Below are positions 58,380 to 61,504 of a stretch of DNA of 64,000 bases, piece by piece; the first letter of the stretch is position 1; each line of letters opens with the position of its first letter. Under the pieces are notes generated by a model. The model was not told where the DNA came from. It did not search any database and was given only the letters and a program-made list of their open reading frames with translations. The stretch covers positions 26,970,001 through 27,034,000 of the forward strand of contig OX597823.1 in NCBI GenBank assembly GCA_951406725.2, given 5' to 3'. Origin of the DNA: Octopus vulgaris. Taxonomy: Eukaryota. The translations under genes were made by a program, and so were the position numbers.

Positions 58380-58920
58380 ACTGACCAGGATGATAGCATC
58401 ATTGGATCAGCTGAGCTACTGCGAGAGACTAAAAGAACTACGGCTCTACTTCCTGGAGCGAAGACGGGAGATATATGCAGTGATATATGTGATATATATA
58501 TAGAAGACACTTGAGGGGCTGGCTCTAAACTTCGGAATTGCGAGCTATACCAGCCCCTGAACGGGACGTTACTGCACTGTTCCAAAGTTTCCAGCAATCC
58601 CGTTTAGAGTGAGGAATTTATACTGCAATTGTACTGCAATAGTTTGAGATTCAAGGGCCCACATCTATTTAATACCTTGTCAACACATCTGAGTGATCTT
58701 CATGGAATTGAGGTAGCTATTTTCAAGAAACAACGAACTTCCTACTGTCCAAGGTGAACCTACATCACGACAAGAAACTCAAAAGAGGGTAGCAAATCGA
58801 ATTCCATCCTTCACCAAAATCCAATCGGGTAAGAATGGTCATTGGAAAGATGATTACACTGGCAGTGCCCGGAACCGGCCACGGCCATTGGGCTGAAACG
58901 CCGAAAGAATAAAAGAATAA
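58380..58920 (+). mobile_element. CR1-like LINE 3' fragment
   Basis: Homologous to 53900-54385. Confidence 0.8.
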
Positions 58921-58922
58921 AG

Positions 58923-58956
<34 letters not shown>

Positions 58957-59258
58957 TAAGTTGAAGACGGGAAGGATGACTTCCCTTTGCAAATACTGAC
59001 AGGACACAGAAAGTGTGTCTATGGCCAGCTGGAGGAGTGTGTCCTCCTGGGGCTAAAAACTACAGTAGCATCCACCCTTAGGGGTAGCCATATTGAGATG
59101 GCAAATATACGTCACGATGTGTTACCGCTACTGTATATAACTCACTTTGATATTTATCATTGTTTGATTTCACTTTTTCAATATCAGCGACAGTGGACGC
59201 TGGAAAAAGTATAAGTATTTGTGAAGGAGATCTAATTCTCGCCGACAACTGTGATTGT

Positions 59259-59303
59259 CACACGCTGACGAGAGGTCAATACCTCGAAACTCGAGTCCGT
59301 GTG
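59259..59303 (+). ncRNA. Type I hammerhead ribozyme, copy 1 (predicted cleavage after C59297)
   Basis: CACACG CUGACGA GAGG-UCAAUA-CCUC GAAA CUCGAG UC CGUGUG. All core nucleotides and stems I-III are present. Confidence 0.92.
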
Positions 59304-59610
59304 TATCATAAGTTGAAGACGGGAAGGATGACTTCCCTTTGCAAATACTGACAGGACACAGAAAGTGCGTCTATGGCCAGCTGGAGGAGTGTGTCCTCCT
59401 GGGGCTAAAAACTACAGTAGCATCCACCCTTAGGGGTAGCCATATTGAGATGGCAAATATACGTCACGATGTGTTACCGCTACTGTATATAACTCACTTT
59501 GATATTTATCATTGTTTGATTTCACTTTTTCAATATCAGCGACAGTGGACGCTGGAAAAAGTATAAGTATTTGTGAAGGAGATCTAATTCTCGCCGACAA
59601 CTGTGATTGT

Positions 59611-59655
59611 CACACGCTGACGAGAGGTCAATACCTCGAAACTCGAGTCCGTGTG
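59611..59655 (+). ncRNA. Type I hammerhead ribozyme, copy 2 (predicted cleavage after C59649)
   Basis: Identical to copy 1, 352 bp downstream. Confidence 0.92.
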
Positions 59656-59815
59656 TATCATAAGTTGAAGACGGGAAGGATGACTTCCCTTTGCAAATAC
59701 TGACAGGACACAGAAAGTGTGTCTATGGCCAGCTGGAGGAGTGTGTCCTCCTGGGGCTAAAAACTACAGTAGCATCCACCCTTAGGGGTAGCCATATTGA
59801 GATGGCAAATATACG

Positions 59816-59879
<64 letters not shown>

Positions 59880-59886
59880 TATTTAT

Positions 59887-60105
59887 GCGTATTCTGTTGT
59901 GTCTGGGGAGAGTCATTCTCATTTAGTGCTTTATAATTTAACACACCCACCGGTAAATGAGTCAAAACTATTGAAAGAGTTGCAAGACGCAACGAAAATT
60001 TTTAAAAAATAGAGAAACAGAAATGAGTGAAAATTTTACCGGTGAGTCTGTTAAATTATAAGGCATTAAAAGAGAATGACTCTCCCCAGACACAACAGAA
60101 TATGC
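59887..60105. repeat. Inverted repeat with ~70-bp arms and ~78-bp spacer
   Basis: attctgttgtgtctggggagagtcattctc...accggtaaa versus tttaccggt...gagaatgactctccccagacacaacagaat. Confidence 0.85.
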
Positions 60106-61504
60106 TTCAACAGACGAACTCACATAAAGAATCTTGCAAACCAAATCCAAAAACGAAATATTCATGCATAATAATTTATACAAACGTTCAACCATTTCCT
60201 AAAATAGTACTCGGTATAATTAAGAAGAGAATAACATTTTAAAGATGGAATACGTTACACACGCACACACACACACACACACATACACCCATCCACACAC
60301 ACATACACACACACACACACACACAATCACTAAAATTTATGACTGCAAAAATGCAGAACGAACCATTAGCTAATAATTCCAAAATTGTAAATGCATGCTC
60401 CAATGCTGCAAGCATTTTCTTAAATTTTATCAATGAGCGGCATTTCATCAACCCCCATATATCATAAGATATTTGATAGTAGCAATAATTTTAAAATGAG
60501 CTACAGTTGTATTCAACACTGCTGCATTTATACCTAGGAGAAAGGAAAGAAACATATCAAGCATGAAAGCAGTAAATTATTCTACTCTATGTAACTACTG
60601 TAGCCAAATCTCATATTTTTCCTCTCGGCATTATGGTTATTTCTAAAAGATTAATTCCATTGAGCTAAGATCTTTACTGAAGGAATACAGTGAAACAAAA
60701 GTAAATCAGAACATTCTAAAATTTCTTTTAAAACGAGTTTCTCATAATATGCATACATTTAGATACTACGAAATACCATTAAATACTTCCCTATTCAAAT
60801 ATATTTGGAATTTAATTAATATTATTATCAGTTATAAAATCGATCGAGTTTTTGTAGAACATGCGTCCCTTTATCTGAAAAGTTCCTTAAGTATTCTTAT
60901 TAATATAATAGAATTACGTTATACATGCAGCCATTTCTAAATCTATAGATACAAATTTAAAGGTAAAATCTTAGGAGAGACATTATATATTTTGCACACC
61001 CACCCAATAAAAAACAAGAACCAAAAATGTGTTCGATGCTCAGGGGATTCTTTCAAACAAATTCCCCAATACGAAAGGGAAGAATTAGAGGATAAGTTAT
61101 ATAGTTACCTAATAGCCACCAAAGTATTTAACTAGTACTTTTTTGATACACAGAGAAATAATTTAAGGCAAAATCAATTTAAAACCAGAATACAAATGGA
61201 CATGGTCCAATGTCATTTCATTTTTCTTTCGAGGATCTGCGATTTTGCTAATTCGCTTGCATTTCAAGCTGTAATACTTATCCTGTACACAAGTACTAGA
61301 TTAAAAACTAAGGAGGAATTAGTTCACCAAACTATAGAGAGTAAAGCTAGTAACTTGTTATATCGCCTCCGGTAAGATAACAGTTTAGGCTCCCCTCAGC
61401 AGGTTTTCAAATCCTAACCCGAGGATCCGAAACAAATAGACAAGGCATTAGATCCAATGCTCCAACGATTCTGCATATTTATCGCTCGAACTGAAAAATA
61501 ATAA

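Follow-up and report, generated by a model that had tools for sequence, protein, structure and literature searches.

Metazoan non-LTR retrozymes, in the accessible text of the papers that describe them (Cervera and de la Pena, 2020, PMC7229834; Li et al., 2026, bioRxiv 10.64898/2026.07.22.740005), have a non-coding unit of 150-450 bp with one type I hammerhead each, occur as dispersed short arrays, are associated with target duplications of more than 4 bp, and have Penelope-like elements (PLEs) as their proposed partner. The first of these studies defined the animal retrozymes, demonstrated circles, and named PLEs as strong candidate partners; the second, in the portion available, uses phylogeny to argue for an origin from PLEs, with the mechanism left open. 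Mobilization of retrozymes by PLEs is already proposed in print. The reasoning in the accessible sections of those papers proceeds from shared ribozymes, co-occurrence, and phylogeny, whereas the evidence added here lies at the level of junctions. A literature search, conducted outside most subscription papers and Repbase, found no paper with mapped retrozyme insertion ends.

Endonuclease-bearing PLEs represent the second described system with which the present family can be compared. The available text of Craig (2021, PMC8557442) and Arkhipova (2013, PMC3846280) reports inverted copies, an optional tail on one side, target duplications, and a TA bias. The family described below likewise forms head-to-head, 5′-truncated arms with a tail at one end, duplications, and microhomology at the joints, and it shares the bias of the Hydra clade for (TA)n and the use of two internal start sites; it differs in having no ORF and in having a tail of 46 nt rather than 30-40 nt. 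According to the accessible part of Frangieh (2024, PMC11167929), both strands are nicked and extended in vitro by a PLE protein, with synthesis initiated at a pair of internal RNA positions that delimit the genomic 'tail'; hammerhead cleavage is dispensable for this activity. The route by which animal retrozymes enter DNA and the way in which PLE inversions and tails are formed are both posed as open questions in the portions of the published work that were available.

The window that we analysed, a 64,000-nucleotide stretch of Octopus vulgaris DNA, contains at 58952-59819 (plus strand) a tandem array of a 352-bp unit. Numbering the unit from the first base that follows the predicted ribozyme cut, the array comprises unit positions 7-352, 1-352, and 1-170 (2.47 copies), and a tandem-repeat measure gives a period of 352, 2.5 copies, and 99% matches. 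A type I hammerhead is present in every full unit, so that two consecutive ribozymes lie on the plus strand: one at 59259-59303, with an intact core and a predicted cut after 59297, and another at 59611-59655, with a predicted cut after 59649. Both are matches to Rfam Hammerhead_1 (RF00163) with an E-value of 7.8e-06 and a score of 32.2 bits, slightly below the Rfam gathering score of 34 bits. Stem III is short and palindromic, the core is complete in the alignment, and cleavage is predicted to follow GUC. The complete cut-to-cut monomer (59298-59649, plus strand) is predicted by folding to reach -119.1 kcal/mol, with a z score of -5.5 relative to 100 shuffles. Rfam matches to miRNA, pestivirus, and Plasmodium families were rejected as noise arising from the TA repeats.

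The array is a single arm without an inverted partner, and it lies between two TA target tracts, (AT)15 at 58925-58954 (for which strand is not applicable) and (TA)29 at 59820-59877. Both of its ends had been placed correctly by the initial annotation, which put the start at 58952, 6 nt past 58946, and the 3′ end in mid-unit at 59819, fused to (TA)n. Position 58946 is the equivalent of the first base past the cut, as follows from the predicted cuts after 59297 and 59649. The trinucleotide TAT at 58952-58954 fits the left tract and the unit equally well, and because of this ambiguity the 5′ joint is assigned to unit 7-10, with C58955 as the first unambiguous base. The 3′ end corresponds to unit position 170, a fixed family site (E1, the shorter of two) that directly abuts the right tract. 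Any target duplication would be masked by the TA repeat and is unreadable in this copy. As context only, the degraded 3′ terminus of a LINE, which we take to be CR1-like and which carries a short, A-rich tail of repeats, occupies 58405-58924 (plus strand) and adjoins the left tract.

The length of the unit falls within the tandem size class of described retrozymes, and coding capacity was judged to be absent by its shortness, as a transposase would not fit. The family is dispersed and multicopy: two motifs return 2012 and 547 exact matches across the genome searched (2.8 Gb, 227 contigs), and reversed controls return none. On all of the sequence features examined, the element is a non-LTR retrozyme, and the copy at 58952-59819 is a young, ordinary member of its family. 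Identity as an autonomous PLE was rejected, as the sequence returns to its own start after 352 bp, and no PLE ORF was found joined to retrozyme arms in frame or in tandem in the checked loci.

Insertions were sampled in three ways. Set A, comprising 51 insertions, was drawn from the best 40 of 3144 candidate loci together with 10 loci from a pattern requiring the same 3′ joint, and is accordingly skewed to long copies and to the 3′ end of the present copy. Set U derives from the first 100 of the 547 exact matches to a 20-mer at unit 142-161 (58 regions, mostly from an older sister family that is 80-85% identical), and set V from the first 100 of the 2012 matches to a 24-mer at unit 115-138 (59 regions). 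Because both patterns lie upstream of the two 3′ sites defined below, sets U and V do not select the 3′ end. Loci shared with set A were counted once, and the duplicates L172 and L179 and the secondary amplification L073 were dropped. The pairs L171/L172 and L177/L179 are identical insertions with identical flanks on one contig (C1) and appear to be segmental or assembly duplicates; at L073 (2920-3870), a 119-bp piece consisting of a retrozyme end and TA underwent sevenfold tandem amplification subsequent to insertion.

Sets U and V contain 176 outer 3′ ends, of which 85 lie at E1 (unit 163-180) and 77 at E2 (unit 211-222), such that 162 ends are within windows totalling 30 of the 352 nt; the 14 ends located elsewhere, which count against a strict two-site scheme, include two LINE joints. 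In the young family, the exact ends at E1 are mostly 170 (21) or 171-173 (17) and those at E2 mostly 215-216 (14) or 219 (11), each site having a minor site 3 nt further on. The same two sites are used in the sister family of approximately 80-85% identity. Internal copies of E2 (unit 215-219) are present within the array at 59160-59164 and 59512-59516 (plus strand), and the site serves as the 3′ end in sister insertions. The informative end of these insertions is the 3′ end, which lies at one of two fixed start points, a position far beyond chance. The view that array junctions record the insertion mechanism is correct in this respect, although they do so via the 3′ end and not via the 5′ end.

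TA tracts follow 28 of 30 young 3′ ends, 41 of 62 intermediate ends, and 28 of 84 ends in the old family (sets U and V), relative to 5.0% of random positions (642/12822). A TA flank is thus present far beyond chance, which is the flank preference that had been suggested as a check on the original proposal. The end positions, the TA flanks, and the duplications found in the family support an RNA-mediated, target-primed insertion into (TA)n, as originally proposed.

Head-to-head insertions account for 58 of the 118 insertions sampled in sets U and V. Fifty of these combine an E1 arm with an E2 arm, eight have an off-site end, and none joins like with like. With set A included, 69 of 80 inverted insertions are E1/E2 and the remaining 11 have an off-site end, with no E1/E1 or E2/E2 insertion. 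Neither PLEs nor an inverted second arm nor this pairing of ends figured in the initial annotation. In the accessible text of the PLE papers the tail is optional, whereas there are no homotypic exceptions to the 69 short/long retrozyme pairs. Counted against a strict pairing rule is the available in vitro result of Frangieh (2024, PMC11167929), in which start-site use does not differ between strands. The E1 arm reaches further 5′ in 46 of the 69 pairs and the E2 arm in 23, and because either arm can reach further, neither is a nested copy of the other. Divergence between the two arms of an insertion amounts to 1.55%, which exceeds that among the units within an arm and is partly due to messy joints.

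In LINE-1 twin priming, both target strands prime cDNA synthesis, resulting in a head-to-head inversion with microhomology; the first start is at the poly(A) end, and the upstream position at which the second primer anneals is variable. The retrozyme family differs from this arrangement in that both starts are fixed and internal and in that either arm can be the longer one.

Duplications of at least 10 bp flank 24 of 25 inverted insertions at non-TA targets, compared with 27 of 300 mismatched pairs. The duplication lengths of 10-18 bp include microhomology at the ends. Only 5 of 20 single-arm insertions at non-TA targets have a duplication, and this is counted against the explanation by PLEs. 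Of the 52 ungapped inversion joints, 31 have arms that overlap by at least 3 nt, relative to 5.5% in simulation, and 18 more joints are gapped. Young single arms fused to TA share at least 1 nt with the tract in 17 of 19 cases and at least 2 nt in 8 of 19 (16% expected); this is a strict count, which replaces a lenient one (14/24) that was inflated by alignment overrun. Microhomology of the same type, the TAT at 58952-58954, accounts for the 5′ joint of the present copy.

We consider it very probable that these insertions represent a retrozyme with two fixed 3′ sites, placed in TA-rich targets and likely inserted by a PLE protein acting in trans. A GIY-YIG nuclease would make a staggered double nick in (TA)n or AT-rich DNA, leaving approximately 10-15 bp between the two nicks, and from each of them reverse transcription would be primed within the RNA, at E1 for one and at E2 for the other. 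The two cDNAs, which would stop at largely unrelated points, could then anneal together to yield an inverted insertion; alternatively, one cDNA could anneal to the far end of the target to yield a single arm. For the copy at 58952-59819, synthesis would have started at 170, proceeded for 868 nt with two read-throughs, and ended with capture on TAT.

Candidate enzymes for such a reaction reside in the same genome, which holds intact PLEs with a hammerhead, (TA)n insertion, and the Hydra-clade motifs RWK, DKT, and CxCX5C in the ORFs of both families examined; the assignment to the Hydra clade was made by motifs and features rather than by a tree. A Pfam search of PLE family 1 gave no match. The youngest Hydra-type family (L234-L253) contains many intact 727-aa ORFs and frequent head-to-head pairs, and all 150 of its scored matches are at 97% or more. 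Its ends lie approximately 40 and 110 nt past its own cut, and each of the 14 head-to-head loci retrieved combines a short end with a long one and lies in (TA)n; these loci had been chosen as opposite-strand neighbours among the matches, irrespective of their ends. Of three older PLE pairs encountered incidentally, one fits the pairing rule, another carries an odd short end, and the third (L059), counted against the rule, has two short ends. A second Hydra-type PLE (L149-L162) encodes approximately 840 aa with an Asn-rich insert and ends approximately 100 and 200 nt past its own cut, in (TA)n.

Two comparisons with these PLE families count against the explanation by PLEs. The spacing between the two ends is about 70 and 100 nt in the families and 46 nt in the retrozyme. 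No likeness to the retrozyme was detected in the terminal repeats of the two families (14 and 20 regions; scores of 20-23 relative to shuffle means of 22-28), whereas the accessible retrozyme literature reports pLTR similarity to PLEs for 24 of 57 Xenopus families. No autonomous partner PLE was found among the two families compared, which have no sequence detectably in common with the retrozyme; the genome contains further PLE families. A sequence common to the upstream regions of three arms was considered as a partner PLE and rejected, as it belongs to a LINE of the Tx1 type that has inserted into the retrozyme. The young retrozyme family offers exact start coordinates (170 and 216, one per strand, with a stagger of approximately 10-15 bp) and a short substrate alongside intact candidate enzymes.

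One possibility for the RNA template is that the same PLE enzyme acts but that every array is produced by rolling-circle copying of a monomer circle. Circles or a monomer bottleneck are favoured by the sequence variation, which amounts to 0.75% between the units of one arm and 2.1% between insertions, and by 12 variants, each confined to a single insertion among 70 young ones, that are fixed in all covering units (up to 6/6) and in both arms. Arms cross as many as 6 cut sites, although the crossing of 2 is limited to 6 of the 158 arms sampled, and circles have been shown for other animal retrozymes in the accessible text of PMC7229834. In four insertions (L032, L033, L038, and L184), in contrast, a variant is present in only some of the units and is shared by both arms, which requires a multi-unit template or gene conversion. 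In L134 and L139, a LINE fragment is followed by an intact hammerhead, with no retrozyme sequence before the LINE. Moreover, 13 first-pass 5′ ends accumulate at unit 291-300, relative to 3.55 expected, while later passes contribute 1 relative to 1.82. We regard an exclusive origin from monomer circles as unlikely. The template would have been an uncleaved or re-ligated RNA, probably drawn both from linear transcripts that escaped cleavage and from circles. The multi-unit circular or multimeric template envisaged in the initial annotation is upheld insofar as the ribozyme site was passed repeatedly; either type of template may have given rise to the copy at 58952-59819.

Sequencing runs X1-X20, which are filed under several organism labels, contain the family, and the four examined cover the unit, mostly with 90-99% likeness; none of the runs listed with the family is recorded as RNA. 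The head-to-tail unit joint is present in contigs of four runs, and since tandem DNA yields the same joint, it is uninformative with regard to expression or circular RNA.

The first-pass pile-up at unit 291-300 in sister copies (59236-59245 and 59588-59597 in the array, plus strand) has a scan-corrected P of 0.005, or 0.053 with two two-arm insertions counted once; over all passes it is not significant after scan correction (P 0.14). This suggests that unit 291-300 is likely a transcription start. The motif ATCAG (unit 238-242; 59183-59187 and 59535-59539, plus strand) lies 58 nt 5′ of this putative start, which is also a Tx1 target, and it recurs 57-61 nt 5′ of 11 of 12 U2 genes (L222-L233), an offset suggestive of an snRNA-type promoter element. 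A weight matrix derived from the regions upstream of the U2 genes, taken unaligned, failed to single out the candidate promoter, which was indicated only by the ATCAG offset. At the twelfth U2 gene (L227), a Tx1-like 3′ end abuts the U2 start.

A more far-reaching version of our preferred reading can be offered tentatively, at somewhat less than even confidence. PLE insertion would be an obligatory, asymmetric double priming, which retrozymes would exploit in trans without homology, mainly as promoter-driven uncleaved transcripts; ribozyme cleavage would be uninvolved, and circles would account for long arrays only. One ribonucleoprotein would use two internal RNA starts on opposite strands of a staggered break, tail and inversion would arise in a single event, and the transcripts would come from the retrozyme's own snRNA-type promoter.

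Inverted arms might instead arise from fold-back self-priming of a single cDNA, as Arkhipova (2013, PMC3846280) proposes for PLE inversions in the text available, followed by trimming at the second site. A single haplotype is common to both arms of an inverted insertion, and the 5′ ends of paired arms lie within 15 nt of one another in 14 of 69 pairs, compared with 5.1 expected; none of 5000 permutations reaches 14. However, the 5′ ends are more than 100 nt apart in 38 of the 69 pairs and more than one whole unit apart in 16, either arm can be the longer, and single arms use both ends (33 E1 and 22 E2 of 60). As a general explanation, fold-back is improbable. Two independent primings fit most pairs, and a minority may be explained by fold-back or by a template end common to both arms.

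The initial annotation interpreted the 5′ end as the mark of the ribozyme, with reverse transcription halting at a self-cleaved 5′ end or a ligation junction. The present copy does end 6-9 nt from the cut, and two long-array arms that stop at unit 1-10 (0.66 expected; P 0.14) are the sole trace in its favour at the family level. The 5′ ends of the family as a whole contradict it. Across 205 arms, 9 ends fall within unit 346-12, where 11.35 are expected after correction for exposure (that is, for how each arm was found), and the narrower window 352-3 contains 3 relative to 2.28; no enrichment at the cut, which had been proposed as a check, was observed in any of three windows tested. The same arms cross the cut site 151 times. 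Passage through the site is free of scars, with 165 of 176 crossings letter-identical to the present copy and an indel in 1, relative to 8.9 expected from the average rate. The end of the present copy also stops short of the cut, on TAT, and is a case of the microhomology described above for young TA joints. Its nearness to the cut is no more than chance, and an arrest at the cut is highly unlikely. The ribozyme cut leaves 5′ ends unmarked in the young retrozyme family.

Mobilization by a LINE (CR1, RTE, or Tx1) in the manner of a SINE, or an origin of the ends in unequal crossover or microsatellite recombination, is the least credible of the readings: a LINE 3′ end does adjoin the present copy, Tx1 elements are physically tied to the family, and L073 documents secondary tandem amplification at the DNA level, but E1 and E2 lack an A-rich or repeated tail, Tx1 inserts into the retrozyme with a duplication of its own, and paired fixed internal ends, head-to-head arms, and duplications, which constitute the described layout of PLEs, are unexpected from crossover, a source that the initial annotation had also discounted.

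The Tx1 association is itself of a specific kind. A young LINE of the Tx1/L1 clade inserts at one site just 5′ of the hammerhead, at unit ~293-313 (59238-59258 in the array). Sixteen of 18 exact matches to its 3′ end (L131-L148) run at this site into retrozyme units, which represent several subfamilies, and the remaining two are followed by a target-like motif and then by other sequence, which in one case is another LINE copy. Duplications of approximately 14-20 bp accompany the Tx1 insertions at L105 and L200. The same literature search found no paper on Tx1 insertion into retrozymes. Immediately to the right of the TA tract that bounds the present copy, an inverted repeat with a MITE-like structure occupies 59882-60110, with 76-nt arms that are 89% complementary.
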